DNA from: Eledone cirrhosa | Taxonomy: Eukaryota | Direction of reading: 5' to 3' | NCBI GenBank assembly: GCA_964016885.1 | Contig: OZ024742.1 | Span: 25,110,001 to 25,174,000 of the forward strand | Length of the DNA stretch: 64,000 bases | In this document: positions 1 to 63,890 of the stretch, in pieces | Position numbering within the stretch: position 1 is the stretch's first letter | How the letters are laid out: the number at the start of each line of letters is the position of its first letter | The notes under the pieces: generated by a model | What the model was told of the DNA's origin: nothing | The model's input: only the letters and a program-made list of their open reading frames with translations | Database searches by the model: none | Translations under genes and position numbers: made by a program

Positions 1-111
1 GCATCTATATATCGGTATATACATACAAACACCACTACACTCTCACACAACTCAGACATACAAAGAAAAAGGTATATACCTATACACATATACATATACA
101 AATAGAGAAAC

Positions 112-176
<65 letters not shown>

Positions 177-376
177 CACATATACACACATACACATACA
201 TACACATACATACATGTACATACACATAGATATATATACACACATACACACATACACACATACATATATAGTCATACACACACATACACCTACACGAACA
301 TACACATACACATATATAAATATATATATACACACACACACACACACATACACACACACACATATATATAAAATAA

Positions 377-411
<35 letters not shown>

Positions 412-985
412 CATATACATACACACATACATAGACATATATGTACATACATACACATACATAGATACATACACACACATACATATATATATACACACAT
501 AGACATATACATACATACACACACAACATACATACACACATATATACTCATACATAGAATTAGATATATATTCATACATACATACGCACTTACATATACT
601 CATATATACAAATACATACGCATCCATATATGCGTATATACATAGAAACACCACTACACCCTCACCCAACTCAGACATACAAAGAAAAAGGCATATACAT
701 ATACATATATACACGCATTAATAGAGATATATATACACATATATATATATATATATATATACACATACACTTATATATATATATACACACACACACATAC
801 AACCATAAATACACATACAAACACCCACATATACATATATATACACATATATATATATATACACACACATAAAAAAATAGACATGCACATATATATTTTT
901 TTACACATATATATACACACACATATACATATACACACCCTCACATATACACACATACACATAAGTTATATTATAATAATAAATA

Positions 986-1040
<55 letters not shown>

Positions 1041-1291
1041 CGAATATAGACATATATACACACATAGATATATACATATATATATACACATACACATACA
1101 CACACACATATACACACTCACATATATATGTGTGTGCACACACACATATATACACATACACACATATACACATAAACACATATATGTGTATACATGCACA
1201 CACACACACATATATCCACATAGATACGAAGATAGACATATAAATAGAGAGACATACATATATATACACACACACATATACATACATACAT

Positions 1292-1356
<65 letters not shown>

Positions 1357-2103
1357 CACACATACACATACACATATATATACACATGCATATATACACA
1401 TATACACATACATACACACATATATATACACACACAATCTTACATTCTTATTTGCATGCGCATATATGTATTTTTATATTCAGATATAAATACCCAAACA
1501 TATATACACCTACCTACATATATATTCATACATACACGCTTACAAACACAGATGATAATAGTATGGGGGAAAGGGGGGGGGGGGGGTGGAGAAGGGGATT
1601 ATAGTAAATATATGTTTCAAGAAACATAGAATATTATCCGTATCTGGATCCAATGTATGTTTTTACATAGTTTCAGTGTTAGGAAATACAATAAACAAGA
1701 AATAAGGCAAAATTTATGCATTTCAAAATAAATAAGTATACCATTAATTATATGTTAACTAAACTAAAGATAGTTAACATATTGATTTCTAAGGTGTAAA
1801 TTAGTTAGGTTTATAATATTTGAAGCAGAATTTTGAAGTTAAATAGTAGTAGAGTATTAATTATAGTATAACTAAATTAAAGTTAATAACGTTATGGTAT
1901 CAATATTAGGAAATGAATTTAGTAATAGGGAAAAAACAAATAAAGTATTACATCGGTAGTAGAATATAAATTATAGGTTAACTAAATTAAAAATTATATA
2001 TTTATTTCTATAGTATATGTTAATTAGGTATATAATAAATAAAACAGATATTGTATTTTATCAATAGCAGAATATAATTATATGCAAATAGAAATCAAAA
2101 TTA

Positions 2104-2134
<31 letters not shown>

Positions 2135-2682
2135 CACATATATATATACATATATATACATATATATATACATATATACACATATACACACACATACACA
2201 TACACATACACATATACATATACATATTTTTTCAAAAATTGCAAAGAATATATTAACTAGGTATATATCCAAAACACATCCCATTCTATGATTACATGAC
2301 ATTCTGCAATTCGTCTGTATAAGGATACTAATTTTAAGCCAATTAAATTAAATTTTTAGGTTGACTAAAATTAAAACCAAATTATAAATATATTTCTAAA
2401 ATGTATATTAATTAGGTCTATAATACTAAAAATTATTTCTCTGTCATTGGATACACGATATTTTGTTATATTTTATCTGTAAAAGAATTATAATAAAAGG
2501 TTTAAATAAATTAAAATTAATCTATAAATTAAATTACTAAGTATATATTAGTAATATTTAAAGGTTTTTCACAATTTATGATTACATAATATTTTATATT
2601 CTCATCTGTAATAGAATTTTAATTAAATTAAATTTATAGGTTAACTAACATTTAAATTAAATTAATTTCTAAAATAATGTTA

Positions 2683-3755
2683 TTAATTAGGTTTATAATA
2701 TTTAAATGTTTTTTTTAGTTTATGATTACACGATATAATTAATTCCTGTCGTTTATTTAATAGGATATCCTTAGATTTCATTATTTCAAATAGTTCTTGG
2801 GAACATAATCTACATTCATTTCTATTATTTTGATAAGGGGTGGCTCTTTTGAGCACACTCCAGGTCAAATCATATTCTATATTCTTATTTTTATAACTAT
2901 TGATTTTTTCTGCTAGAGATGTTGTATTAGCCAGTGCGGCATTTTTAAAACTATGCTTGTGGGTATTAAACCTTGTCTTAAAATTGTTAGAGGTAGCTCC
3001 TATATATGAGCAAATAGAATCTTTAGTTTTAACATTACATTTATAGACTATGTTGTTAACAAGACAATTCCCTTTTAATGGGCAGTTTGCTTTGTTTCTA
3101 CAGTTACAACCTTTCGTTAATTCTGTATTTGAGGAGATATTATGGTTAATTTGATGTACTGGTGGTATACTTATGGTTTTCTTACATTTATATGCATTAT
3201 AGGCACTTATATTTTGTTTTATGTTATTTGTTGTAGAGTATGAGAATTTAACTGTAGACCTATTTAAGATTTGATGGTATTTGTGGTTTGGCGGGAAGTT
3301 TTTCTCTAGGATATAAAAAAATTTTTTAGCAATATTATCCTTAATTTGTAAATTAAATGGAGCATTATACCAAGTAACCCGTCTATTACGGTTTCTATGT
3401 TGTTTATTATTTTTATTATTTTTATAGGTTGTATCGTGATTTTTACTAGGAGGATTAATGTTAATGATCTCACCACAACCATTTTTAGTTATATTTGTAG
3501 ATTTAGGTGTTTTATCCTTTTTATTAGGAGTTTTATTATTAATATTTATTAGAGTTGTATGATGAGTAGTTTTTTGAGAGTTACTATACTTTATATTAGA
3601 AGATTTGGTATTTTGGGGTATAGTGTGGGTGGCATTTAGGTGTGTACTTTTCATTTGGTGTTTGTTGGTAATATTAGGTTGTATGCTTTCAGTATTTTTA
3701 GTAGAAGGTATATATTCTAATCTATTTTTGTGGCCACTTCTATCTAGAGCTTCGT
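2683..3755 (-). pseudogene. Inverted partial copy of the PLE ORF (end of thumb, linker, GIY-YIG endonuclease)
   Basis: The 323-aa ORF 2683..3654 is identical to the C-terminus of 3846..5348. Reverse-complement identity extends to 3755. Confidence 0.92.
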
Positions 3756-3845
3756 AATATTATTACACATGCTAGACTAACACTTATTGAATTTCAGAAT
3801 GAATACTGGACCAGAAACACATATAGTAATCTATTTGATATTACT

Positions 3846-5348
3846 ATGGGTTCAAGCGATTCCGCCCAAATTACTGATCTTGTGGGCCTCTTTCTCCTTT
3901 TCAACATAAATGCCTCCTTTCCCCACCTCAAAGGTGGTTTATATCGTGATGACTGTCTTCTTCTTTCTAACAACCTTAGCCTTTCAGAAATTGAAAAAAA
4001 CAAAAAACATATTAGAACTTTCCTTAAAGACTATTATAATCTTAATATTACTTTTGAAAAAACAAGTAAAGTAGTAAATTTCCTAGATATAACTTTAGAT
4101 TTAACTACGGGTATCTACCAACCTTACCATAAACCAAACCAAAACTTACATTACATACACTCACAATCTAATCACCCTAAATCTATCCTTAAAAACCTTG
4201 CATATAATATATCACTTAGAATTTCTAACCTTTCTTCTAACCAAGATGTATTTGATAAAAATGCGACCTTCTATAACGAAGCTCTAGATAGAAGTGGCCA
4301 CAAAAATAGATTAGAATATATACCTTCTACTAAAAATACTGAAAGCATACAACCTAATATTACCAACAAACACCAAATGAAAAGTACACACCTAAATGCC
4401 ACCCACACTATACCCCAAAATACCAAATCTTCTAATATAAAGTATAGTAACTCTCAAAAAACTACTCATCATACAACTCTAATAAATATTAATAATAAAA
4501 CTCCTAATAAAAAGGATAAAACACCTAAATCTACAAATATAACTAAAAATGGTTGTGGTGAGATCATTAACATTAATCCTCCTAGTAAAAATCACGATAC
4601 AACCTATAAAAATAATAAAAATAATAAACAACATAGAAACCGTAATAGACGGGTTACTTGGTATAATGCTCCATTTAATTTACAAATTAAGGATAATATT
4701 GCTAAAAAATTTTTTTATATCCTAGAGAAAAACTTCCCGCCAAACCACAAATACCATCAAATCTTAAATAGGTCTACAGTTAAATTCTCATACTCTACAA
4801 CAAATAACATAAAACAAAATATAAGTGCCTATAATGCATATAAATGTAAGAAAACCATAAGTATACCACCAGTACATCAAATTAACCATAATATCTCCTC
4901 AAATACAGAATTAACGAAAGGTTGTAACTGTAGAAACAAAGCAAACTGCCCATTAAAAGGGAATTGTCTTGTTAACAACATAGTCTATAAATGTAATGTT
5001 AAAACTAAAGATTCTATTTGCTCATATATAGGAGCTACCTCTAACAATTTTAAGACAAGGTTTAATACCCACAAGCATAGTTTTAAAAATGCCGCACTGG
5101 CTAATACAACATCTCTAGCAGAAAAAATCAATAGTTATAAAAATAAGAATATAGAATATGATTTGACCTGGAGTGTGCTCAAAAGAGCCACCCCTTATCA
5201 AAATAATAGAAATGAATGTAGATTATGTTCCCAAGAACTATTTGAAATAATGAAATCTAAGGATATCCTATTAAATAAACGACAGGAATTAATTATATCG
5301 TGTAATCATAAACTAAAAAAAACATTTAAATATTATAAACCTAATTAA
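3846..5348 (+). CDS. PLE reverse transcriptase (C-terminal half) - thumb - Cys linker - GIY-YIG endonuclease; N-terminally truncated
   Basis: Motifs: FDITMGSSDSAQITDLVGLFLL, GLYRDD, VNFLDITLDL, YIHSQSNHP, CNCRNKANCPLKGNC linker, NIVY...YIG...FKTRFNTH, CRLCSQE, LLNKR. The Met at 3846 is internal; the frame continues upstream to 3756 (NIITHARLTLIEF...YWTR). Confidence 0.93.
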   Translation: MGSSDSAQITDLVGLFLLFNINASFPHLKGGLYRDDCLLLSNNLSLSEIEKNKKHIRTFLKDYYNLNITFEKTSKVVNFLDITLDLTTGIYQPYHKPNQNLHYIHSQSNHPKSILKNLAYNISLRISNLSSNQDVFDKNATFYNEALDRSGHKNRLEYIPSTKNTESIQPNITNKHQMKSTHLNATHTIPQNTKSSNIKYSNSQKTTHHTTLININNKTPNKKDKTPKSTNITKNGCGEIININPPSKNHDTTYKNNKNNKQHRNRNRRVTWYNAPFNLQIKDNIAKKFFYILEKNFPPNHKYHQILNRSTVKFSYSTTNNIKQNISAYNAYKCKKTISIPPVHQINHNISSNTELTKGCNCRNKANCPLKGNCLVNNIVYKCNVKTKDSICSYIGATSNNFKTRFNTHKHSFKNAALANTTSLAEKINSYKNKNIEYDLTWSVLKRATPYQNNRNECRLCSQELFEIMKSKDILLNKRQELIISCNHKLKKTFKYYKPN

Positions 5349-6664
5349 TAACATTATTTTAGAAATTAATTTAATTTAAATGTTAGTTAACCTATAAATT
5401 TAATTTAATTAAAATTCTATTACAGATGAGAATATAAAATATTATGTAATCATAAATTGTGAAAAACCTTTAAATATTACTAATATATACTTAGTAATTT
5501 AATTTATAGATTAATTTTAATTTATTTAAACCTTTTATTATAATTCTTTTACAGATAAAATATAACAAAATATCGTGTATCCAATGACAGAGAAATAATT
5601 TTTAGTATTATAGACCTAATTAATATACATTTTAGAAATATATTTATAATTTGGTTTTAATTTTAGTCAACCTAAAAATTTAATTTAATTGGCTTAAAAT
5701 TAGTATCCTTATACAGACGAATTGCAGAATGTCATGTAATCATAGAATGGGATGTGTTTTGGATATATACCTAGTTAATATATTCTTTGCAATTTTTGAA
5801 AAAATATGTATATGTATATGTGTATGTGTATGTGTATGTGTGTGTATATGTGTATATATGTATATATATATGTATATATATGTATATATATATGTGTATG
5901 TATATGTATATGTATATGTATTAATTTTGATTTCTATTTGCATATAATTATATTCTGCTATTGATAAAATACAATATCTGTTTTATTTATTATATACCTA
6001 ATTAACATATACTATAGAAATAAATATATAATTTTTAATTTAGTTAACCTATAATTTATATTCTACTACCGATGTAATACTTTATTTGTTTTTTCCCTAT
6101 TACTAAATTCATTTCCTAATATTGATACCATAACGTTATTAACTTTAATTTAGTTATACTATAATTAATACTCTACTACTATTTAACTTCAAAATTCTGC
6201 TTCAAATATTATAAACCTAACTAATTTACACCTTAGAAATCAATATGTTAACTATCTTTAGTTTAGTTAACATATAATTAATGGTATACTTATTTATTTT
6301 GAAATGCATAAATTTTGCCTTATTTCTTGTTTATTGTATTTCCTAACACTGAAACTATGTAAAAACATACATTGGATCCAGATACGGATAATATTCTATG
6401 TTTCTTGAAACATATATTTACTATAATCCCCTTCTCCAACCCCCCCCCTTTCCCCCATACTATTATCATCTGTGTTTGTAAGCGTGTATGTATGAATATA
6501 TATGTAGGTAGGTGTATATATGTTTGGGTATTTATATCTGAATATAAAAATACATATATGCGCATGCAAATAAGAATGTAAGATTGTGTGTGTATATATA
6601 TGTGTGTATGTATGTGTATATGTGTATATATGCATGTGTATATATATGTGTATGTGTATGTGTG

Positions 6665-6715
<51 letters not shown>

Positions 6716-6968
6716 ATGTATGTATGTATGTATATGTGTGTGTGTATATATATGTATGTCTCTCTATTTATATGTCTATCTTCGTATCTATGTGGATATA
6801 TGTGTGTGTGTGCATGTATACACATATATGTGTTTATGTGTATATGTGTGTATGTGTATATATGTGTGTGTGCACACACATATATATGTGAGTGTGTATA
6901 TGTGTGTGTGTATGTGTATGTGTATATATATATGTATATATCTATGTGTGTATATATGTCTATATTCG

Positions 6969-7023
<55 letters not shown>

Positions 7024-7601
7024 TATTTATTATTATAATATAACTTATGTGTATGTGTGTATATGTGAGGGTGTGTATATGTATATGTGTGTGTATATAT
7101 ATGTGTAAAAAAATATATATGTGCATGTCTATTTTTTTATGTGTGTGTATATATATATATATGTGTATATATATGTATATGTGGGTGTTTGTATGTGTAT
7201 TTATGGTTGTATGTGTGTGTGTGTATATATATATATAAGTGTATGTGTATATATATATATATATATATATGTGTATATATATCTCTATTAATGCGTGTAT
7301 ATATGTATATGTATATGCCTTTTTCTTTGTATGTCTGAGTTGGGTGAGGGTGTAGTGGTGTTTCTATGTATATACGCATATATGGATGCGTATGTATTTG
7401 TATATATGAGTATATGTAAGTGCGTATGTATGTATGAATATATATCTAATTCTATGTATGAGTATATATGTGTGTATGTATGTTGTGTGTGTATGTATGT
7501 ATATGTCTATGTGTGTATATATATATGTATGTATGTGTGTGTATGTATCTATGTATGTGTATGTATGTACATATATGTCTATGTATGTGTGTATGTATAT
7601 G

Positions 7602-7658
<57 letters not shown>

Positions 7659-7848
7659 TTATTTTATATATATGTGTGTGTGTGTATGTGTGTGTGTGTG
7701 TGTATATATATCTTTATATATGTGTATGTGTATGTTCGTGTAGGTGTATGTGTGTGTATGACTATATATGTATGTGTGTATGTGTGTATATATATCTATG
7801 TGTATGTACATGTATGTATGTGTATGTATGTGTATGTGTGTATATGTG

Positions 7849-7901
<53 letters not shown>

Positions 7902-8205
7902 ATATATATATATATATATATGTATATGTTTCTCTATTTGTATATGTATATGTGTATAGGTATATACCTTTTTCTTTGTATGTCTGAGTTGTGTGAGAGT
8001 GTAGTGGTGTTTGTATGTATATACCGATATATAGATGCGTAAGTATTTGTCTGTATATATGTATGTATGTCTGTATGTATTTGTGTGTATATATAGGTAT
8101 GTATGTGTATATCTGTATGTATATAAGTATGTAAGTGTATGTATATGTGCGTGTATGTGTGTATATATATGTGTGTCTATATAGTATGTGTGATTATATG
8201 TGTAT

Positions 8206-8265
<60 letters not shown>

Positions 8266-8425
8266 GTGTATTTATATGTATGTGTGTATATGTATGTATG
8301 TGTGTATATGTATATGTTTATATATGTGTGTATATGTATGTTCTAAGTGTGGATGTGTGTATATGTATGTATGTGTTTGTATATGTGTATGTATATGTAT
8401 ATGTGTATATATGTGTATGTATATA

Positions 8426-8489
<64 letters not shown>

Positions 8490-9117
8490 CTTGATATATT
8501 TCTTTTTTCTTTTTTCTTTTTCTTTTCTTTCCTTTTTAATGTTTATTTATTATTTATTATTTTTTATTTTCTTAGTTTATAGATACATCTATATTAAGCA
8601 GTCTGCCCAAACCGTTGAATACTGACCTCTCCCCCCCCTCCCACCTAATTTCTGTATCTTGATCTAAATGTGTGTGCCAGTGTTTATGTGAGTGAATTAA
8701 TATCCATGTGCTTAGGATTTTATATCCATATATATATATGTGAGTGGGGGTGTGTGTGTGTTTGTATGTTCGTAGTTATGTGTATGTTTATGCATATACG
8801 CGCGTGTGTGTGTGATTGTACGGATATGTGTGAGTATGAGAATATGTGTATACACTTATTTCATATTTATGTGTCTATACGCATCTTATCTGTGCATTAT
8901 AAACTTACAGAGACATTAACCTTGAAATTTTGTATTTGCATCCATCCTTTTGGTATGCGTATACAAGTTGTGCATACATTTTTGTAAAATATGTGTAAGG
9001 GTAGTTACATGTATATACACACACCGAACTGCATTAAACCTTTTGTATTTTCATTGGTCAATTTTGTTCCCAAACGGACCTGAAATTTTGAATTGTTGTT
9101 ATTATCAATAAATATAT

Positions 9118-9271
9118 TTCATTATTTCTGAAGACGGCGTATATATGTGTTGGTATGTATATTTAATCTTGATAGTTTGTATAATTTTGTATAATTTTGT
9201 ACATAGATCTATTGAATATGCATGCCAATTCTAACACATATATATCCTAGAAACGATCGTTAAATAATGAA
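9118..9271 (+). ncRNA. Type I hammerhead ribozyme with extended stem II
   Basis: Stem I ttcattattt/aaataatgaa (10 bp); CTGAAGA at 9128-9134; long stem II; GAAA at 9250-9253; palindromic stem III cgatcg; predicted cleavage triplet GUU. Confidence 0.8.
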
Positions 9272-9324
9272 CTTTTTTTGTTTAATATAAGGAACTGTTT
9301 CATTGTTTATTCATTATTTGTTTA

Positions 9325-9381
<57 letters not shown>

Positions 9382-12299: not shown

Positions 12300-12614
12300 A
12301 TATTTGTGTAATATTAAATGTGGGTGCGATGAAATATGCCCATACTACACCGCTTAAAAGAGTTTGTGATAAGAAGGGCATCCAGCTGTAGAAACAATGA
12401 CATACAAAATTTAAGAAAACTTTTCAGTTATTTCATGTTCTTGATAATTTAGTGAAACAATAAAATTTATCAAGCACATGAAATAACTGAAAAGTTTTCT
12501 TAAATTTTGTATGTCATAGTTTCTGCAGCTGGATACCCTTCTTATCACAAACACCTTTAAGCGGTGTAGTATGGGCATATTTCATGGCACCCACATTTAA
12601 TATTACACAAATAT
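12300..12614. repeat. Fold-back inverted repeat, ~148-bp arms, ~19-bp loop
   Basis: 12300-12447 is the reverse complement of 12467-12614 with about 7 mismatches. Confidence 0.95.
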
Positions 12615-29279: not shown

Positions 29280-31545
29280 CATTCAAGAGAAGGTCAAACT
29301 GTAGAAAGAAACTGTGTTGTTTTAGTGCATAAACTTTGTTAAACCTATAGTATTGGTTTATCAGCAGTTTATGAAGCAAAGGCAAATCAACTATTGAAAT
29401 TCTATACAAGCAGTGTTTTCAAGAAGCGAATGAGCATTAGAAAAAAATAATGAAAGTTAGTAAAAATACTGAAATGACGTAGTGATAATGGAATGATTCC
29501 TACAATATAGCTGTGATGGAAGGGAATTGTCAGATTGGTTGATTTTGAAGCAGCCATAGTTGTTCCATGTGGGACTTAAATCAGAATATGATTGTGTAAT
29601 TGTGAAGGATGGATTTAAAAATTCAAGAAGCATGATGAAATTTCCTTTCACAAAGTAGGAGGAGAAACATTCTTTATGTAAACCAAGAAGGAGCTACTGT
29701 ATTAGGATGAATTTGCAAGATCATAACTAATGGGTACCTCAGTCATGAAACTGCCTTATATGGGCATTAAACACAGGGAAACAATAACCACAGAAGACAA
29801 TCCAACACCATGAATTTCAAACAATCAAAATACAAACTTACTATCATAGGGTACTCAAATGCTGTGGGTAAGTACAGATGTATAAGCTGTTAGTGATAGA
29901 AAAATGTAGATGCTCCAGAGCCTTGATAACCTTGGAAATAACCAAGTAATATACTGTTCAAATAAAAATGGCTGGATTACAACTAAAATTACCCTAGAAA
30001 CTTTCAAAAATATTCTGCATCAGAAGCTAGAGCTAATTCTACATCAGTAAGCTTACCAGAAGCCAAACAAAACTGTACATCTGTAGGTCTACCAGAAGCT
30101 GCATCAAATTCTAAACCTGTAAACTTACCAGAAAACAGGCCAAACTGTTCATTTGTAGAAGTCAAAGCTACCTCTACATATGTAGGCACACCAGAAGCCA
30201 TGGCAACTATATATCTGTAGGCATACTGGGCATTAGGTCTATCAGAGGTCATACAAAACTGTACATCTGAAGAAGTCAGAGCTAATTCTAGATATGTAGG
30301 AATACCAGAAGCCACAGCCAACTCTACATCTGTAAATCTACTATCTGCCACAGCCAATTATACATCTGTAGGCTTACTTGGCATTAGGTCTATCAGAAGC
30401 CAGACCCAACTGCACATCTGTAAGCCTTCCAGAAGCCAGATCAAATTGTACATTTTCAGGCCTACCAGAAGCCAGTCCACATTGTACAGCAGTAAGCCTA
30501 CCAGACACTATACCATATTGTACATCTGTAGGTATACCATACACCAAAACTAAATATACATCTGTAGATTTACCAGAAGCCAGAGCTAACTCTTCAGGTT
30601 TACTAGAAGCCAGACCAAATTGTACATCAGTAGGCCTCCCAAAAAACTGCAAATTATTCTTATTATGGACAACTATTCAGGACACTACTAGCCAGCAGTA
30701 GGTCACTAATCCAACTCCAAAATCAAAGAAAACTCTACTTTTCCTGAATCATAAATTAGATGTGGTGAATGTTGCAAATCTGCACTCAGACATTTATTAA
30801 TGGATTTAAGACAATAGATGTCCTGTTTATTGTGAGAAAACGATAGAAGGTAGAAGGATATACAGTAAAGAAAGCCTGACATAAGTTATAACCAGCCTTG
30901 ATGGTGGATAGTGCACATGGTGAATGTGCTGTAAAGATTTTACAGGCAATCAAATCATCATCATGATCATTAACATTTAATATCCATTTGCCTTGCTAGC
31001 ATGGGTTGACTAGATTGTCACAGATCAAGTCAGTACTTAACTAAAGCAAGTAACATCTCTGATGAGCTGGGGGCCACATCTCACATGCATTCCCACACTC
31101 TTTGTTTAGCAAACTTTCTATGGTAGGATGCCCTTCTTATCACCAATCACTTTATAGAATATACTGGGTGCATTTTATCCTGTCACCAACATTAGGAAGG
31201 TTGTTGTGTCTTTGATGCAACTGAAGCGTCCCTTTGATCTTTTGTTACTTGAGTATGAAAAACATGTTACAATATCTGTTGCCAAATATATAGTAAGTGA
31301 GCTTGATGAAGAAAATGTGGTTGAGGTGATGACTGTTAATGTAGAACCACCTGTTGTGTAACATCTTATAGACTCAGAAATTCTAGAGACTCTTCTAACA
31401 TTGATGAAAAATATAGGAAATGATGAAGACATTGATAAAGATGAAAGTATTTCCAATGATAAGTTGATTGAGGTTGTGAATGAATTAATAAAAAGTACCA
31501 CTTTGACAGACAAGAACTAATGCATTTGCATTTGTCGAATACACT
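29280..31545 (+). pseudogene. pogo/Tigger (CENP-B/Jerky-like) transposase fossil, frameshifted, interrupted by a SINE remnant (~30955-31230)
   Basis: Hand translation across frames gives YSIGLSAVYE, LLKFY, EGWI*KFKKH, ETALY, YKLLVI, YCSNKNGWIT, PEARxNCTSVGLPKNCK, MDNYSGH and an acidic C-terminus ELDEENVVEVM...HLIDSEI. Confidence 0.8.
30020..30642 (+). repeat. 36-bp codon-structured tandem repeat (PEARPNCTSVGL), ~17 diverged copies
   Basis: Recurring ccagaagccag...tgtacatctgtagg; ORF 30378..30701. Confidence 0.92.
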
Positions 31546-34394: not shown

Positions 34395-36056
34395 TGTCTA
34401 TTTTATCATAGTACAGTCTATTTTGTCATAGTAGTCTATTCCGTCATAGTACAGTGTTTCATCATACTACAATATATTCTGTCATAGTACAGTCTATTCT
34501 GTCATAGTACAGTGTTTCATCATAGTACAATCTATTCTGTCATAGTACAATCTATTCTGTCATAGTACAGTCTGTTTCATCATAGTACAGTGTTTCATCA
34601 TACTACAATATATTCTGTCATAGTACAATCTATTCTGTCATAGTACAGTCTGTTTCATCATAGTACAGTGTTTCATCATACTACAATATATTCTGTCATA
34701 GTACAATCTATTCTGTCATTGTACAGTCTATTCCGTCATAGTACAGTCTATTCCATCATAGTACAGTCTGTTTCATCATAGTACAATCTATTCTGTCATA
34801 GTACAGTCTATTCTGTCATAGTACAGTCTATTCTGTCATAGTACAGTCTATTCCATCACAGTACAGTCTATACCATCATAGTGCAGTCTGTTTCATCATA
34901 GTACAATCTATTCTGTCATAGTACAGTCTATTCTGTCATAGTACAGTCTGTTTCATCATACTACAATCTATTCTGTCATAGTACAGTCTATTCTGTCATA
35001 GTACAGTCTATTCCATCATAGTACAGTCTGTTTCATCATAGTAAAATCTATTCTGTCATAGTACAGTCTATTCTGTCATAGTACAGTCTATTCCATCATA
35101 GTACAGTCTGTTTCATCATACTACAATCTATTCTGTCATAGTACAATCTATTCCATCATAGTACAGTCTATGCTGTCAGTACAGTCTGTTTCATCATAGT
35201 ACAGTCTATTCTGTCATAGTACAATATATTCTGTCATTGTACAGTCTATTCTGTCATAGTACAGTCTGTTTCATCATAGTACAATCTATTCTGTCATAGT
35301 ACAATCTATTCTGTCATTGTACAGTCTATTCCGTCATAGTACAGTCTGTTTCATCATAGAACAATCTATTCTGTCATAGTACAATCTATTCTGTCATAGT
35401 ACAATCTATTCTGTCATTGTACAGTCTATTCCGTCATAGTACAGTCTATTCCGTCATAGTACAGTCTTTTTCATCATTGTACAGTCTATTCTGTCATTGT
35501 ACATTCTATTCCGTTATTGTACAGTCTATTCCATCATAGTACAGTCTGTTTCATCATAGTACAATCTATTCTGTCATAGTACAGTCTATGCCATCATAGT
35601 ACATTCTATTCCGTCATTGTACAGTCTGTTTCATCATAGTACAATCTATTCCGCTATTGTACAATCTATTCCATCATAGTACAGTCTGTTTCATCATAGT
35701 ACATTCTATTCTGTCACAGTACAATCTATTTCATCATAGTACAGTCTGTTTCATCATAGTACAGTCTATTCCATCATAGTACATTCTATTCCGTCATTGT
35801 ACAGTCTATTATGTCATAGTTAAGTCTATTCTGTCATGGTACAGTCTATTCCATCATAGTACAGTCTATTCCGTCATTGTACAGTCTATTCCGTCATTGT
35901 ACTGTCTATTTTGTCATAGTACAGTCTATTTTGTCATTGTACAGTCTATTCCGTCATTGTACTGTCCATTTTGTCATAGTAAAGTTTATATCATCATATC
36001 ATAGTACAGTCTATTTTATCATAGTACAGTCTATTTTATCATAGTACTGTCTATTA
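34395..36056. repeat. 20-bp minisatellite, ~80 copies
   Basis: Unit gtcatagtacagtctattct with interspersed variants (ctgtttcatcat, caatctatt, ttccgtcattgt). Confidence 0.97.
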
Positions 36057-51322: not shown

Positions 51323-52261
51323 GTATGTACATATGTATGCATCCATATGTATGTATATATTACAATATGGTATCCAATGATGTTGACTTGTTCTTCTCTT
51401 TGGTAAATATCATCTTGGTTAAGAGAGTGGAACTGGTTTTGTGCAGTGCCTTTGCTCACTATAAAAGCTTCATGGCACAAGCATTGCTTTATATCTGGAG
51501 ACCTCTCTGCACTTGTCGTCACATGGTACCATGGGCCCAGCACTATGTGTCAGTAATTGTCACAAGTGTAGTGTTTGTACCAGAGTTTTCAAGTCGCTGG
51601 TTGGACTAAAAAGTCACACTCGTTCAGCGCATCAGTAGGAGTTCTCCTACATGGATATAAAGTAGTGGCCGTACTCGAAAACGAGTTGGCAGTCACCATG
51701 TACATATGTATGCATGTATGTATGTATGTTTGTATGTATGTATGTGTGTGTATGTATGTATGTATGTATGTGTGTATGTGTATGTATGTGTGTATGTGTG
51801 TGTATATGTATGTGTGTGTGTGTGTATGCATGTATGCATGTGTATGTGTGTATATATGTGTGTGTGTGTATGCATGTATGCATGTGTATGTATGTATGCA
51901 TGTATGCATGTTTGTACGTATGTATGTATGTGTGTGTATGTATGTATGTATGTATGTGTATGTGTGTATGTATGTATGTATGTATGTATGTATATGTGTG
52001 TATGTATGTATGTGTGTATGTATGTGCGGGTGTATGTATGTATGCATGTATGTATGTGTGTGTATGTATGTGTGTGTATGTATGTATGTGCGTGTGTGTA
52101 TGTATGTATGTACGTATGTATGTGTGTATATTGTAATAAAAGTCATATTCATTTATAATTTACCATTTTGATACCTAAGAACCACCATTGGAATTGAGCT
52201 GCATAGATCACATAGTATGGCACTGTAAGACAAGACACATACAGATGTATATATATATATA

Positions 52262-53395
52262 TACACATACATATATATGAGCATATACACAGACACAAAG
52301 GCACATACATGGATGCACAAATATACACACAGACACATACTTATACTCAACAAAGTGTATATACACATACATATATATGTGCATATACACAGACACAAAG
52401 GCACATACATGGATGCACAAATATACACACAGACATACTTATACTCAACAAAGTGTATATACACATACATATATATGAGCATAAACACAGACACAAAGGC
52501 ACATACATGGATGCACAAATATACACAGACACATACTTATACTCAACAAAGTGTATATACACATACATATATATGTGCATATACACAGACACAAAGGCAC
52601 ATACATGGATGCACAAATATACACACAGACACATACTTATACTCAACAAAGTGTATATACACATACATATATATGTGCATATACACAGACACAAAGGCAC
52701 ATACATGGATGCACAAATATACACACAGACATACTTATACTCAACAAAGTGTATATACACATACATATATATGTGCATATACACAGACACAAAGGCACAT
52801 ACATGGATGCACAAATATACACACAGACACATACTTATACTCAACAAAGTGTATATACACATACATATATATGTGCATATACACAGACACAAAGGCACAT
52901 ACATGGATGCACAAATATACACACAGACATACTTATACTCAACAAAGTGTATATACACATACATATATATGTGCATATACACAGACACAAAGGCACATAC
53001 ATATATATGTGCATATACACAGACACAAAGGCACATACATGGATGCACAAATATACACAGACACATACTTATACTCAACAAAGTGTATATACACATACAT
53101 ATATATGTGCATATACACAGACACAAAGGCACATACATGGATGCACAAATATACACACAGACACATACTTATACTCAGCAAAGTGTTTATACACATACAT
53201 ATATATGTGCATATACACAGACACAAAGGCACATACATGGATGCACAAATATACACACAGACATACTTATACTCAACAAAGTGTATATACACATACATAT
53301 ATATGTGCATATACACAGACACAAAGGCACATACATGGATGCACAAATATACACAGACACATACTTATACTCAGCAAAGTGTTTATACACAGATA
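52262..53395. repeat. ~100-bp tandem repeat built from frozen microsatellite, ~11 copies
   Basis: Unit contains cagacacaaaggcacatacatggatgcacaaa...cttatactcaacaaagtg. Confidence 0.95.
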
Positions 53396-53577
53396 CATAC
53401 ACACACACGTATAATTATCTACTCACATAAAAGTAAATTTATATACATCAATCTCTGTATGCATTATTCAGGAGACTTTTGTGTTTTGAAGAATAAACAT
53501 AAACAAATGCAATGTGTTTATATCTACTAGTGTATATATATGTTTCTGCATGTGTTGGTATAGATCTATGTATGTAT

Positions 53578-55043: not shown

Positions 55044-55239
55044 AATTCACAAGTTGTTAAACAACTGCACAAATACGAACTGGCAGGTGACATATATACG
55101 TACATAAATATATGTATATATATATATATATATATATAAATATATATATATATATGTATATATATATACATATATTTATGTACGTATATATGTCACCTGC
55201 CAGTTCGTATTTGTGCAGTTGTTTAACAACTTGTGAATT
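55044..55239. repeat. Perfect inverted repeat centred on a (TA)n tract
   Basis: aattcacaagttgttaaacaactgcacaaatacgaactggcaggtgacatatatacgtacataaata and its exact reverse complement. Confidence 0.95.
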
Positions 55240-58195: not shown

Positions 58196-60960
58196 TGTCC
58201 CCTCGTTATCGAGTATGGCCATTGCATAAAAATAATATATATATACATATACATACATATATATATATATATATACATATACATACACACACACATACAT
58301 ATATATTAATAACAATAATAATAACAACAATAATAATAACTACAACAACAACAATAATAATATACATATATATATATACACACACACGCACACACATAAA
58401 CATATCTATACACACACACACACACGATAGCAACTAACAGCGCTGCGATCGAATGTGGCTTTTTAGCCCAGCCAATGATCTAAAATGTCTTGCACAGAGT
58501 CGGCAACCAAAACATTCACTGGGAATAGTCGGCTGTAGTTGGAGTTCATGTACTTTTGCATGTCGCTTGAGCCCTCCTGCTGATTTACATTCTCTACCAC
58601 ATGTTTGACAAGCATGATGAGTAGCATCTCCAACAGCAGCCTGGTAGTCAACCACTGGTCTTACTTTATGACTGCGAAGATGACTTTCGAGTCCAGCTTT
58701 GCTTAGGCAGCATCTCGCACAGACACTGCTTGTCAGCACCATAGGAGGACCCTCGCCGTCTGGAAGTGCAACAGCAATGCCCTCCCTCACATCCCGCTTT
58801 ACTTTCTCGTATGCGATTCGAGATTCCTTAAAGGCAACTTTTCCCTCATATACAGTCTTTCTCCATTTATTACGATCAGCAGCAATATTTTCCCATGTAT
58901 CAGCAGAGATGTTAGCATCTTTCAAAGAGGCTTTCAAGGAATCCTTATACATCTTTTTTGGTTTATGTGGCGGTCGGTTTCATTTAACTAACTCTCCATA
59001 AAAGAGTTGTTTTGGTATTCTAGAATCCTTCATTCTGGCAAGGTGACCACTCCAACGGAGTCGTTGCTTAAGCACAAGAGCTTCTATACTGTCACACATA
59101 GAGCTTTCCAAAATCTCGACATCACTGATGTGGTCCCCCCAGTGAACGCCATGGATCCATCTGAGACACATCTGATGGAAACGCTCCAATTGCTTAAGGT
59201 GGTGTCGATATGTGACCCAGGTCTCGCAGACATAAAGAAGACAAGAGAGCACACATGCCTTGTACACCCTTACCTTTGTCTTCTTGCATATGTCTCACCG
59301 ACCCCAGAGTCGCCTTTCTAGCTTTCCGAAAGCATCACTTGCTTTCCTAATCCTAAGTGAGATTTCACTATCAAGGTTGCTGTATCGATTGACAGTGCTT
59401 CCCAGGTAGACAAACTGATCAACCACTCCAAGTCGTTTACCATACACATAGATATTTGGTTCACTGTACTGCTTACCAGGGGCAGGTTGGTACATGACGA
59501 TGGTTTTCTTGAGACTGACAGTCTATCCTAGGGCAGTGCAAGCGTCAGAAAATGCATTCAAAATGTGCTGCATATCACTCTCTGTGTGCGCTACAAGATC
59601 GCAATCATCTGCATACAGATGAGGTTTCTTATGATTGATGTAAATACTTTTGTCTTTGCAGCAAAGCGCCTGATCTTAAATATGCTGCCTGAGGTTCGAT
59701 ATCGGATGTAAACACCATGCTCGCAATTCCTGAATGCAATACAGAAAACCATTGCAAAGTATATGGCAAACAGGGTCGGTACTGGAATATCCCCGTTTCA
59801 CTCCATTTTTTACTGAGATAGGCTCCGACATTAACCAAAGCCTTCATGTCGTCATGGAAAGACCTAACTAAAGCAAGGAACTTATCAGGGCAACCAAGTT
59901 TCTGGAGAACCTTCCATAATGCATTTCTGTTAACAGTATCGAAAGCTTTTGTCAGATCGACAAAAACCTGATACAGATCCAAACCTTGTTCCATGCACTT
60001 CTCCTGGAGCTGACTAGCTGAGAAGATCATATCAGTAGTGCCGCGTCCAGCACAAAAACCAGATTGTATTTCAGGAAGAACATAATCTGCAATGTGTGCC
60101 AGCAGACGGTCCAGAAGCACCCTACATAAAACTTTCCCTACGACAGAAAGCAATGATATACTTCTTTAGTTCCCACAATAATTCCTGTTACCCTTTCCCT
60201 TGTACAAGACCACCATTACTGCATCTCTCCAGTCCTCAGGTACGGATTCATTAGCCCATATCCTGCCAAACAAAGAGTGAAGATGTTGCAGGAGTCTCTC
60301 ACCACCATATTGTAGGAGCTCAGCATGTATGCCATCCATACCTGGAGACCTTTCACTGTTCAGCTTCGAGATAGCCACTGCAACCTCCACAAGTGTCGGA
60401 GGTTCTGCGAGAGCTACTTTCACAGGACTTTCTGGAATGAGATTGAGGAAATCTTCACTGACGACAGACGGCTGATTCAAAAGATCATCAAAGTGCTCTC
60501 GCCACCTTCATAGAATTCCTTGTGAGTCACGAAGAAGTTCTTTGCCATCCTTGCTGCGAAGCGGTGTCACCAGAGAAGAAGACGGTCCATAAACTTCACG
60601 CAAGAGACTGTACAACAGCTTTGTGTTATTGGAATCTGACGCAGTTTGTATCTCACCAGCCTTCTCACTCCACCACTGATCCTTCATCTGAGAAAGACTC
60701 TGCCTAACACGTGATTTTACATCCTTGAGTTCCTCATGCAACGTATTCCTCTCCTGTGGTTTTGCTGTCAAGTAGCGTGACAGAGCACGCCTCTTATCAG
60801 CCAACAAGTCTTCTATATGTACATCATTCTCATTAAACCAGTCCTGATGTTTTCTCTGCACCAATCCCAGAACACGCCTGCCTACATCATAAACCGACTT
60901 TTTAAGGGTCAGCCAATCCTCACCAAGATCTGCAACCTGCATCTCTTCTTGCAATGTCCT
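58187..60960 (-). mobile_element. RTE-BovB-like LINE, 5'-truncated, frameshifted
   Basis: Six colinear ORF fragments: SPGMDGIHAEL, FVDLTKAFDTVNR, LYADDCD (~59600), FVYLGS, LRWSGHLARM, C2H2-like fingers. A probable 3' terminus atggccatactcgataacgaggggacagccatc at 58187-58225 is separated from the ORF by microsatellite. Confidence 0.92.
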
Positions 60961-62870: not shown

Positions 62871-63890
62871 ATGGTAGAACGGTAGAATTAGCTCCCAGAG
62901 ACAATTGAGAATTACTGAGCTAGAAAACAAAAACTGTTCTTTAATTTCTATTGTTAGTTATACTTCATTGGTTGTGTAATTGTAGTTCTGGCAGCAGTGC
63001 TATGGTGGTGGTGGTGGTGGTGGTGGTGGTAGTGGTGGTGATGGTGGTGGTGGTAGTGGTGGTGATGGTGGTGGTGGTGGTGGAGTGGTGGTGGTGGTGG
63101 TGGAGTGGTGGTGGTGGTGGTGGTGTTGTGGTGGGGCTGTTGTGGTGTTATGGTGGTGCTGTGGTATTGTTTGTGTAATTGTAGTTCTGGCAGCAGTGCT
63201 ATGGTGGTGTTGGGAGTGATGGTGGTGGTGGTAGTGATGGTGGTGGAGTGGTGTTGTGGTGGGGGTGTTGTTGTGGTGTTATGGTGGTGCTGTGGTATTG
63301 GTTGTGTAATTGTAGTTCTGGCAGCAGTGCTACTGTGGTGGTGGTGGTGCTGCTGTTGCTGGTGGTGGTGATGATGGTGTTGTGATGGTGATGGTGTTGT
63401 TGTGATGGTGGTGTTGTTGTTGTGGTGTTATGGTAGTGGTTGTGTAATTGTAGTTCTGGCAACAGGACTATGGAGGTGGTGGTGGTGCTGGTGGTGGTAG
63501 CAATTGTGATGGTGATGGTTTTGTTGTGATGGTGGTGGTGTTGTGGTAGTGGTTGTGGAATTGAAGTTCTGGCAGCAGTGTTATGGTAGTGGTGGTGGTG
63601 GTGTTGCGCTGTTGTTGGTGTGATGGTGTTATTGTGGTGTTGTAGTGGTGGTGGTGTGGTGCTAGCGATGGTGGTGTTGTGGTGATTATGTTCTTGTTGT
63701 GTAATTGTAATTCTGGCAGCAGTGCTACTGTGGTGGTGGTTGTGGTGTTCTGGTGGAGGTGTTATGGTGTTGTAGTGGTACAATTCTAGTTCTGGCAGTA
63801 GTGCTATGGTGGTGATGGTGGCAGTGGTGGCAATGTTGATTGTGGTGGTGTTTGTGGTGATGGTAATATTCTTGTTGGTGTTGTTGGTGT
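62770..63890. repeat. (GGT/AGT)n low-complexity array with about 7 recurring ~32-bp anchors
   Basis: Anchor ttgtgtaattgtagttctggcagcagtgcta at about 62972, 63172, 63302, 63440, 63553, 63697 and 63780. Confidence 0.9.

Follow-up and report, generated by a model that had tools for sequence, protein, structure and literature searches.

A recent inverted insertion of a Hydra-clade Penelope-like element in Eledone cirrhosa, with two fixed ends suggesting that both target strands primed on one RNA

Structure of the insertion

The palindrome at the beginning of the window (the whole stretch of 64,000 nucleotides of Eledone cirrhosa DNA that was analysed) is probably a doubly truncated Hydra-clade Penelope-like element that inserted recently into (TA)n; both cut strands likely primed on the same RNA, at sites 137 nt apart. 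Self-alignment of the window gave one inverted match, 1-3759 against 8038-4272, with 97.9% identity. When upstream DNA was included, the mirror was found to extend 1.28 kb upstream of position 1. The whole insertion measures 10,742 bp (G000:C3:25108589-25119330, window -1411 to 9330), the palindrome starting 1,411 bp upstream of the window, with (TA)n at either border. A 137-nt extra tail is present on the left arm and is missing from the right one. The features are collected in Table 1.

Outside microsatellites the arms differ by a single substitution in 3,044 aligned bases, while nine substitutions were counted within microsatellites. There are 14 indels between the arms, 13 of them in microsatellites and one in a C run. 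The part coding for the linker and the putative GIY-YIG domain occurs twice in the palindrome, with no stop in either copy. Residues 1-283 are missing from the right-arm ORF remnant, so that this copy is unable to encode a whole RT. Taken alone, the locus is an ordinary dead copy.

An earlier note on this DNA had described much of this from the letters of the window. The palindrome is borne out by the self-alignment and by the mirror continuing upstream, and the spacer of 520 bp with the RT core and the doubled, uninterrupted putative GIY-YIG part were both seen. The mirror-image hammerhead predicted upstream on the minus strand was located about 1,060-1,215 bp before position 1. The claim that the arms differ mostly by repeat length agrees with 13 of 14 indels, and the recent age with the scarcity of substitutions outside the repeats. 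The arms are near-identical and head-to-head, as described, but their length had been given as about 3.75 kb and the paired arms reach about 5.0 kb. The view of the insertion as unusually large was not supported, since contig C1 has eight insertions with paired arms of at least 4 kb within its first 70 Mb alone. About 300 insertions with arms of at least 4 kb are estimated genome-wide.

Table 1. Features of the insertion in window coordinates
Feature	Position	Strand	Description
Left arm, upstream part	to G000:C3:25108589 (window -1411)		Mirror hammerhead, 137-nt tail to site B, (TA)n, unrelated flank
Left arm, in-window part	1..3755	-	5'-truncated copy, ORF residue 458 through 3' region
Left-arm ORF remnant	2683..3755	-	Thumb end, Asn/Thr/Lys-rich insert, Cys linker, putative GIY-YIG domain; RT core absent
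Head-to-head junction	3755..3755	.	One-base microhomology; unit positions 1658 and 1137
Unpaired spacer, 520 bp	3756..4275	+	RT core, residues 284-457 of full protein; YRDD 3942-3953
Right-arm ORF remnant	3756..5348	+	Residues 284-813 of 813-aa ORF
Asn/Thr/Lys-rich in-frame insert, ~100 aa	4335..4634	+	Between thumb and linker; absent from homologues
Linker and putative endonuclease	4923..5345	+	CxCx5C(x5C) 4923-4967; IVY...YIG 4980-5033; then CxxC, CxH
3' region, 3,983 bp	5349..9330	+	~45% purine/pyrimidine-alternating repeat
Degenerate AT-rich units	5349-6300	+	~110-140 bp each
Microsatellite blocks	5804-5921; ~6550-8486; ~8727-8814	+	Internal duplication of ~620 bp in ~6550-8486
C run	~6436-6455	+	
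Type I hammerhead motif	9118..9271	+	Stem I 9118-9127/9262-9271; CUGAAGA 9128-9134; GAAA 9250-9253
5' end hotspot of short copies, family-wide	9121..9121	+	Unit position 6460, A of initiator-like TCATT
Site A	9330..9330	+	Shorter of two fixed 3' ends
(TA)n target, right side	9331..9377	.	Matching (TA)n adjoins left end

The element and its protein

The family unit is 6.67 kb long and has one ORF of 813 aa, which was open in 14 of the 19 fetched copies that retain the ATG. A Foldseek search with the predicted model (pLDDT 83) returned telomerase RTs as all of its top eight matches (best E 1.6e-8). Pfam and PDB sequence searches of the protein gave no useful match. RWR was located at residues 37-39 and DKT at 115-117, and the motifs CNCRNKANC (in the linker), CRLC and CNH are common to 118-119 of 120 homologues. 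Downstream of the IVY...YIG motif, R, H, E and N appear in their usual order, and this pattern is conserved across homologues; a CCHH motif was not seen in the protein when judged by eye. Among the listed fold matches of the model there was no GIY-YIG entry, and Pfam was likewise blank. Based on its motifs and its likeness to published Hydra proteins, the C-terminal endonuclease is putatively of the GIY-YIG type. These motifs lie C-terminal to the RT, unlike in Naiad and Chlamys, which are N-terminal EN+ Penelope-like elements. The Asn/Thr/Lys-rich insert showed 2-4% occupancy among 44 long homologues and a pLDDT under 50.

The motif match, with published references compared by eye, supports assignment of the element to the Hydra clade. 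The earlier note had pointed to this likeness from the YRDD motif and the linker. YRDD, RWR, DKT, the CxCx5C linker and the (TA)n target were all found. Exact matches in the genome numbered 6,745 for the hammerhead end and 1,208 for the RT core, and junctions with (TA)n amounted to 4,011 for end B and 2,983 for end A. Terminal ends ran into (TA)n in 100 of 102 cases. Tandem copies with a period of about 6.67 kb also occur. The family is young, with thousands of ends.

Microsatellite-rich 3' region

The 4-kb region that follows the ORF had been proposed to be part of the element, and it does travel with the ORF: the 3' region of 30 RT-core matches was of the long form in 21, of a short form in seven and unresolved in two. 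Its length increases along the tree from 0.91-0.95 kb through 1.5, 2.6-2.7 and 3.4 kb to 3.6-4.5 kb (Spearman -0.70 over 39 loci), on a tree rooted on the most distant short-form copies. The intermediates in this ladder are one copy of 1.5 kb and two of 2.6 kb, with node support of 78-100. The six copies with the shortest regions contain 2-3% repeat, and a unit of about 3.6 kb would be expected for this short-form sister lineage. It is likely, as far as the comparison of copies goes, that the 3' region grew stepwise from a microsatellite-free ancestor. One master copy after another would have gained length in place, through local duplication and through microsatellites arising and expanding.

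An alternative, which we regard as rather unlikely, is capture: read-through as far as a downstream terminal repeat would have brought in most of the long 3' region at a single stroke, as host microsatellite DNA. Captured spacers of 0.9-1.5 kb have a precedent in Pen1_Av of Adineta vaga (PMC3846280), and at one locus of the present family (S23) flanking DNA was drawn into an insertion. Moreover, a stretch of about 500 bp in the long form (window ~8500-9010) has no detected counterpart in the short form, so that part of the region may be captured DNA. On the other hand, the unique blocks of the region are homologous in all long copies, and its first kb is a local amplification of the first 130 bp of the short form. 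In the 1.5-kb copy the repeat interrupts the ancestral sequence between short-form positions 236 and 241, the remainder being collinear. This and the ladder of lengths on the tree argue for stepwise growth rather than capture.

Each new copy would bring about 1.7 kb of microsatellite. Dispersal of microsatellites by the element, proposed in the earlier note, does occur, but the extent is weakly borne out: the element's share is estimated at ~3.3 Mb, which is roughly 1% (also an estimate) of the microsatellite-like DNA of the genome.

Hammerhead and RNA start

The hammerhead has an extended stem II of 115 nt and a predicted GUU cut after 9261. Its fold gave a z of -6.5. The motif has been retained in 13 copies from different lineages, among which a stem I base pair has changed from A-U to C-G. 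Rfam returned no hammerhead match, probably because stem II is long, and only sub-threshold miRNA matches driven by microsatellites were obtained.

The 5' ends of short copies are concentrated a few bases from the hammerhead core. It was found that 35 of 71 short-arm 5' ends lie at unit positions 6459-6467, and genome-wide 1,470 starts fall at 6460 versus 289 at 6461. By hand count, a preceding G was present in 31 of the first 100 copies starting at 6460, versus 10 of the first 100 at 6461 (Fisher p 4e-4); five of these 31 bases are explained by the partner arm and seven more may be. The fixed 5' base with its extra G suggests a capped sense template, with unit position 6460 as the probable RNA start.

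Three other origins of these ends and templates were considered and rejected. A stall of reverse transcription at 6460 was ruled out because 26 of 40 ATG-bearing copies extend past this position. None of these 40 begins at 6460, and a one-unit mRNA from there was discarded as the template of full-length copies. Ribozyme-cut RNA was discarded as the main template, since the first 100 of 577 matches include only about 10 that begin at the cut site. As a separate observation, three of the 40 long copies begin at 6603-6614, a weak and post hoc hint of starts near the cut site.

The putative start sites face outward from the palindrome, and a hairpin RNA would thus need host read-through. No host exon was recognised when ORFs were scanned over the window and the 20 kb upstream of it, although short exons would escape such a scan. 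LINE and Hydra relics were found by the same scan.

Inverted insertions and their outer ends

The sample comprised 65 insertions in the 61 loci that hold the first 100 of the 6,745 hammerhead-end matches. Forty-two insertions were inverted and 23 displayed one arm only, so inverted insertions are normal for the family and not exceptional. Both outer ends were visible in 40 of the inverted insertions, and in 39 of them (hand tally) one end was site A and the other site B, 137 nt beyond it. The tally falls to 38 if S23 is left uncounted, as this insertion fits the rule only if its 2.7-kb flank duplication is a template jump; on that reading S23 was rejected as an A+A exception. L029 has the single non-standard end. 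The same combination was observed in 6/6 RT-anchored loci and in 5/5 hand-picked loci.

The two arms of one insertion differ by 0.67 substitutions per 203 nt, versus 6.3 between loci (42 arm pairs). Paired arms share 139 of 152/156 minority variants, and this sharing holds even for arms 10-12 kb apart. Microhomology at the junctions is 0-4 nt; the automatic junction finder gave many false rows from AT-rich repeats, and its rows were used only where the junction had been seen otherwise. The rule of A and B ends, together with the shared variants, favours priming by both cut strands on one RNA.

It is improbable that a single cDNA folds back and primes itself, or that antisense RNA does so (PMC3846280), with the second end set by endonuclease cleavage. 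Such self-priming accounts for identical arms and short junction microhomology, and small palindromes are indeed frequent at the centre of short copies. However, a cDNA primed at A has no tail sequence, yet the tail-bearing B arm is the shorter one in most pairs and seven B arms consist of tail sequence only. The longer arm may be A or B, and the extra G at the fixed 5' base points to capped sense RNA; both stand against self-priming.

Arms formed from separate RNAs or by successive insertions, and later homogenised by gene conversion, are very unlikely. The arms of a palindrome are able to convert each other, and such conversion could be an alternative source of the shared variants. The element also re-inserts into (TA)n, including that of its own 3' region (L055). 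However, A+A, B+B and tail-to-tail combinations would then be expected, and none was seen as outer ends; the sharing of variants between distant arms also argues against this origin.

A fold-back artefact of long reads or assembly can be practically dismissed: near-identity of the arms is what a chimeric read would produce, and no read or contig across the 3755 junction was found in four short-read/reduced-representation runs, probably of other individuals, yet the mirror ends precisely at the element ends between flanks unlike each other, the 137-nt tail is confined to the left arm with the same A+B asymmetry in 39 of 40 sampled inverted insertions, and the site lies in the interior of a 379-Mb contig. 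The reads of those runs that match the junction region are the normal upstream continuation of the ORF; the contigs matching the left flank are repeats, and the empty site was not seen among them. Neither result speaks for or against the insertion.

Proposed mechanism and its implications

According to the preferred reading, with two primers on one RNA, the putative GIY-YIG domain would cut both (TA)n strands. On an uncleaved sense RNA, site A would be used by one 3'-OH and site B by the other, and 2-3 nt could pair at either site. An in vitro precedent exists (PMC11167929), in which reverse transcription starts at two internal sites and both strands are extended. The cDNAs would extend over variable distances (5.6 and 5.2 kb at the present locus), anneal at their 3' ends via 0-4 nt of microhomology and copy one another, which would leave a repeat with its arms head to head around an unpaired centre. 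Capped RNA beginning 7 nt ahead of the hammerhead core would account for most short copies, and longer read-through or multimeric RNA for the long ones. In the openly searchable literature, no paper on Penelope-like elements was found that describes priming from two ends, a G derived from the cap or a 3' region grown by microsatellites.

PMC8557442 names as an open task the question of how Penelope-like elements come to insert in tandem and inverted form and how they select microsatellites. The present family offers thousands of fresh footprints with a sharp rule: A and B ends, the same template and a fixed, probably capped 5' end. This rule discriminates between two-ended priming and self-priming, and an in vitro assay for it exists. 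In addition, a retroelement appears to have more than doubled its length by microsatellite growth in its own 3' region while active. Repeat annotation is affected where the 3' region is masked as simple repeat, and marker design where such microsatellite loci are multicopy.

A bolder idea, which we put forward as doubtful, is that the telomerase-related RT copies one capped RNA from both break ends and slips on its own (UA/UG)n tracts. If so, each cycle would make microsatellites longer and seed them anew, fresh (TA)n targets for the element among them. The slippage would be recorded in the stepwise rise from 0.9 to 4 kb and in the 13 differences in repeat length that separate the arms, which otherwise match at 3,043 of 3,044 bases. 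Hundreds of palindromes of 8-17 kb could then feed long double-stranded RNA to editing or silencing.

Comparison with known systems

The element resembles the Hydra clade (Craig et al. 2021, PMC8557442) in its RW-basic motif, DKT, YRDD, CxCx5C linker, and CxxC and CxH near the end of the endonuclease. Further likenesses are a hammerhead near the 3' end, with a GUU cut in several members, the (TA)n target, and the inverted 5'-truncated copy of Penelope-13_HM. In contrast, the unit of 6.67 kb compares with 1.1-3.0 kb in all 27 listed families; the general size below 3 kb, exceeded here, is descriptive of the clade and not diagnostic. The 4-kb microsatellite 3' region, the 100-aa low-complexity insert, the 115-nt stem II and the 137-nt tail also set the element apart. 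Hydra-1_Obim of Octopus bimaculoides belongs to a different family, according to a by-eye comparison of text sequences. Partial tandems (pLTR), inverted 5'-truncated copies and an optional tail, which characterise EN+ Penelope-like elements more generally, are likewise present in this family, with the tail on one end.

Poseidon PAc of Anolis carolinensis, in the available text of Frangieh et al. 2024 (PMC11167929), likewise has two internal RT start sites bounding a tail and an AT-rich target, with both strands cut and extended on uncleaved RNA as template. Its sites lie inside the ORF and its tail is 30-40 bp, whereas here the sites are non-coding and 137 nt apart. No connection is made in that text between this pair of sites and the opposite ends of a single inverted insertion.

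The Penelope elements of Adineta vaga (Arkhipova et al. 2013, PMC3846280) are similar in several respects: an inverted pLTR is present, optionally with a tail on one side; the pLTR contains an Inr-like motif; Asn-rich stretches are inserted in frame between RT and endonuclease; and long spacers precede the 3' pLTR. Those spacers are 0.9-1.5 kb long, unrelated among copies and read as captured host DNA, whereas the 3' region described here is common to copies, up to 4.5 kb long and microsatellite-rich. Self-priming on an antisense template was proposed in that study.

As far as the available text of PMC11702581 goes, L1 twin priming is also alike in that the second primer is the other target strand on the same RNA, in junction microhomology, and in an extra 5' G in copies extending to the cap. 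There, the second primer anneals close to the end of the first cDNA, which results in a 5' inversion with little overlap. In the present element both primers would start close to one common 3' point, so that kilobases are duplicated in inverted form.

Structure of the palindrome

Self-alignment of the window revealed an inverted match of 97.9% identity at its start, and with the upstream DNA added the mirror was found to run 1.28 kb further upstream of window position 1. The earlier note had described two near-identical head-to-head arms of ~3.75 kb each; the inverted repeat stands, the arm length was too short. A mirror-image hammerhead, predicted upstream of position 1, was present at the predicted place. 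The complete insertion measures 10,742 bp and is bordered by (TA)n on both sides, with two different flanks. One base is common to both arms at the junction, and the left arm carries 137 nt extra past the mirror end, followed by a (TA)n run. Across 4,997 aligned bases, 10 substitutions and 14 indels separate the arms; only 1 of the substitutions falls in the 3,044 bases of the non-microsatellite part, and 13 of the indels are in microsatellites. With 5' truncation of both arms, at residues 284 and 458, the window copy is dead. Four sequencing runs, of short-read or reduced-representation type and probably from other individuals, yielded no read across the 3755 junction. It is unlikely that the palindrome is an artefact, because its ends are asymmetric, its flanks differ and the rule on ends described below holds family-wide.

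A decayed Hydra-type element, with YRAD for YRDD, was observed ~2.3-3.5 kb before window position 1, adjoining RTE-like and other LINE relics. Elsewhere in the window, two small, perfect-looking palindromes are probably MITE-like repeats.

Coordinates of the features (C1, C3 and C6 are contigs of assembly GCA_964016885.1; L001 is the palindrome locus with its upstream DNA, L055 another fetched locus)
Feature	Coordinates	Strand	Remark
Inverted match	window 1-3759 vs 8038-4272
Head-to-head junction	window 3755
Unpaired centre	window 3756-4275
Complete insertion	C3:25108589-25119330
Window	C3:25110001-25174000
Frequent 5' start, unit 6460	window 9121
Predicted cut triplet	window 9259-9261
Stem I 3' strand with downstream pairing sequence	window 9262-9320
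Site A, unit 6670	window 9330
Hairpin at site B	L001:8589-8602	minus	perfect, 5 bp
Small palindrome	window 12300-12614		315 bp
Small palindrome	window 55044-55239		196 bp
Decayed array	window 29987-30698		~13-codon units, several frames open
Minisatellite arrays	window 34396-36055, 52258-53399, 62997-63760		periods ~20 bp, ~100 bp and shorter
Broken RTE-like LINE	window 58437-60960	minus	C-terminal C2H2 zinc fingers
Tandem array	C6:49531242-49557887		five full units
Tandem array	C1:183737157-183762700		four full units
17-kb palindrome	C1:30690876-30708055		L111, L044, L045
Nested insertion	L055:2900-3100		short copy in (TA)n

The element and its family

Other copies of the element are arranged as tandems with a period of ~6.67 kb, and the two arrays listed would be probable sources of multimeric RNA. 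The full unit encodes an ORF of 813 aa, open in 14 of the 19 fetched copies that kept the ATG. Pfam and PDB sequence searches gave no match to the protein, a search of a large protein collection returned 922 relatives, and a fold search with a predicted model (pLDDT 83, built on 39 sequences) placed telomerase reverse transcriptases in the top eight positions. The resemblance to the Hydra clade, suspected from YRDD and the linker, was borne out by motif: RWR, DKT, YRDD, CxCx5C, CxxC and CxH, which define that clade (PMC8557442), were all found. The element appears to work like a canonical endonuclease-bearing Penelope-like element. An Asn/Thr/Lys-rich insert of 100 aa, lacking in 44 long homologues, is reminiscent of the Asn-rich inserts in Penelope elements from Adineta vaga (PMC3846280).

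Exact-pattern searches of the 3.0 Gb genome, whose counts are lower bounds, detected at least 6,745 hammerhead ends, 1,208 RT cores, 85 ORF starts and 936 occurrences of a motif from the microsatellite block. The sample comprised all 61 loci behind the first 100 hammerhead-end matches, all from the initial 70.2 Mb of C1, and 15 further loci from RT matches in the same stretch. By hand tally, 42 of 65 insertions were head-to-head and 23 single-arm, L087, a locus of an intermediate lineage, being left out. Eight insertions had paired arms of at least 4 kb, which corresponds to roughly 300 genome-wide when scaled by RT matches (30 in this stretch, 1,208 in total). The window palindrome, which had been considered unusually large, is therefore typical of the family, and the window locus itself is ordinary.

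Probable growth of the 3' region

The proposal that the UTR travels with the ORF was confirmed. A 3' region of 2.6-4.5 kb sharing one set of unique blocks was found in 37 of 38 arms in which the ORF end and hammerhead were present, drawn from hammerhead-anchored and hand-picked loci. Seen from the ORF side, 21 of 30 RT matches had this long form and 7 a short form (0.91-0.95 kb, 2-3% alternating repeat), with 2 assigned to neither. Both forms were split with full support in an endonuclease tree of 55 rows. In a second tree of 55 rows (support 78-100, root set on the most distant short copies) the 3' length was 0.9, 1.5, 2.67, 2.61, 3.4, 3.8 and ~4 kb from base to youngest (Spearman -0.70 over 39 loci). 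In the long form, the opening kilobase is a locally amplified version of the first 130 bp of the short form, with additional repeat blocks appearing later. The 1.5-kb copy contains a 310-bp repeat block directly after a C run, within otherwise collinear ancestral sequence. About 500 bp of the long form, without match in the short form, could be captured DNA by analogy with Pen1_Av (PMC3846280). Two retrotransposons, L1 and Alu, are known as birthplaces of microsatellites (PMC3812793).

The sampled 70.2 Mb contained 244 kb of element, with 77 kb of alternating repeat, extrapolated to ~10 Mb and ~3.3 Mb genome-wide. Since the remainder of the window is 9.8% alternating repeat, the family's share of such repeat in the genome is about 1%, older copies left out. 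The suggested dispersal of microsatellites thus stands in that the 3' region is copied along, but its amount is small.

Proposed RNA 5' end and hammerhead

Short-arm 5' ends were located at unit 6459-6467 in 35 of 71 cases. Genome-wide, 1,470 copies begin at unit 6460 and 289 at 6461. A preceding G was counted by hand in 31 of the first 100 listed for 6460 and 10 of the first 100 for 6461 (p = 4e-4); the partner arm accounts for five of the 31 and possibly for seven more. Unit 6460 is the A of TCATT, an initiator-like motif. In L1 the extra G is a sign of cap copying (PMC11702581), and Penelope has an internal promoter without TATA (PMC2377424). From the sequence of these copies we infer a capped sense RNA whose first base lies 7 nt ahead of the core of the hammerhead. 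These start sites would point away from the palindrome, so that the suggested long dsRNA would need read-through from the host. None of 40 ATG-bearing copies (fetched from the 85 ORF starts) starts at 6460 and 26 extend beyond it, which means that long copies would derive from longer RNAs.

Few copies begin at the cut site of the ribozyme (about 10 among the first 100 of 577 matches), hence uncleaved RNA would be the usual template. With z -6.5 the hammerhead folds well, and it is conserved across lineages. In a fold of unit 6601-6647, the 3' strand of stem I was also able to pair with downstream sequence, which could keep the predicted ribozyme inactive. When the window was compared with sister copies L096, L104, L105 and L109, the predicted cut triplet read GUU in the young long-form lineage; the short-form lineage and a ~500-copy subfamily have GUA instead.

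Two fixed ends and proposed priming

Two positions account for the terminal ends, unit 6670 (site A) and unit 6807 (site B), and of 102 such ends 100 continue into (TA)n; the patterns used gave 2,983 A and 4,011 B junctions genome-wide. One A and one B were present in 39 of 40 inverted insertions with both outer ends seen, the exception being L029, with a non-standard end. The same combination was found in 6/6 RT-anchored and 5/5 hand-picked loci, the window locus among the latter. The insertion S23 was rejected as an A+A case, its mirror taking in 2.7 kb of flanking DNA and the end furthest to the right being B. The longer arm may be either A or B, and seven B arms consist only of sequence from the tail, which is the 137 nt between the sites. 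Over 42 pairs, paired arms showed 0.67 substitutions per 203 nt versus 6.3 between loci, and about 154 minority variants included 139 common to both arms. Readable central junctions displayed 0-4 nt microhomology or short inserts.

Priming of reverse transcription on one RNA by both cut DNA strands is the simplest reading. Gene conversion between arms is an alternative cause of the shared variants. Fold-back on an A-primed cDNA is disfavoured because it could not yield the tail, nor would insertions made independently hold to the A+B rule. For priming from both strands, short primer pairing is possible, as each site is followed by three bases matching (TA)n.

Site B lies at the 3' base of a hairpin, and no hairpin of that kind ends at site A. 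The central junctions of loci L022 and L035 contain short reiterated inserts of 11-13 nt, which suggest repeated slip-and-copy by the reverse transcriptase. In the 17-kb palindrome, a family insertion duplicated, in inverted orientation, 2.7 kb of flank in which a different Hydra family is represented by a nearly complete copy; a template jump of B-primed cDNA onto the flank is the likely origin. The nested insertion lies in another copy's own 3' region, so the element targets itself.

Comparison with known systems

For Penelope-like elements, the search of open literature brought up no paper on priming from two ends, on a G derived from the cap or on a 3' region grown by microsatellites, and the parts consulted of PMC13282606 and 10.64898/2026.07.22.740005 do not describe the present family. 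Although the single locus is ordinary, the family has value for a mechanistic question that is still open. An inverted copy with a one-sided tail has already been described for Penelope-like elements (PMC8557442, PMC3846280). The 27 listed Hydra families span 1.1-3.0 kb (PMC8557442), whereas the present unit, at 6.67 kb, is more than twice the longest. In vitro, PAc was found to start at two internal sites and to extend both strands (PMC11167929), which fits the two-ended reading proposed here.
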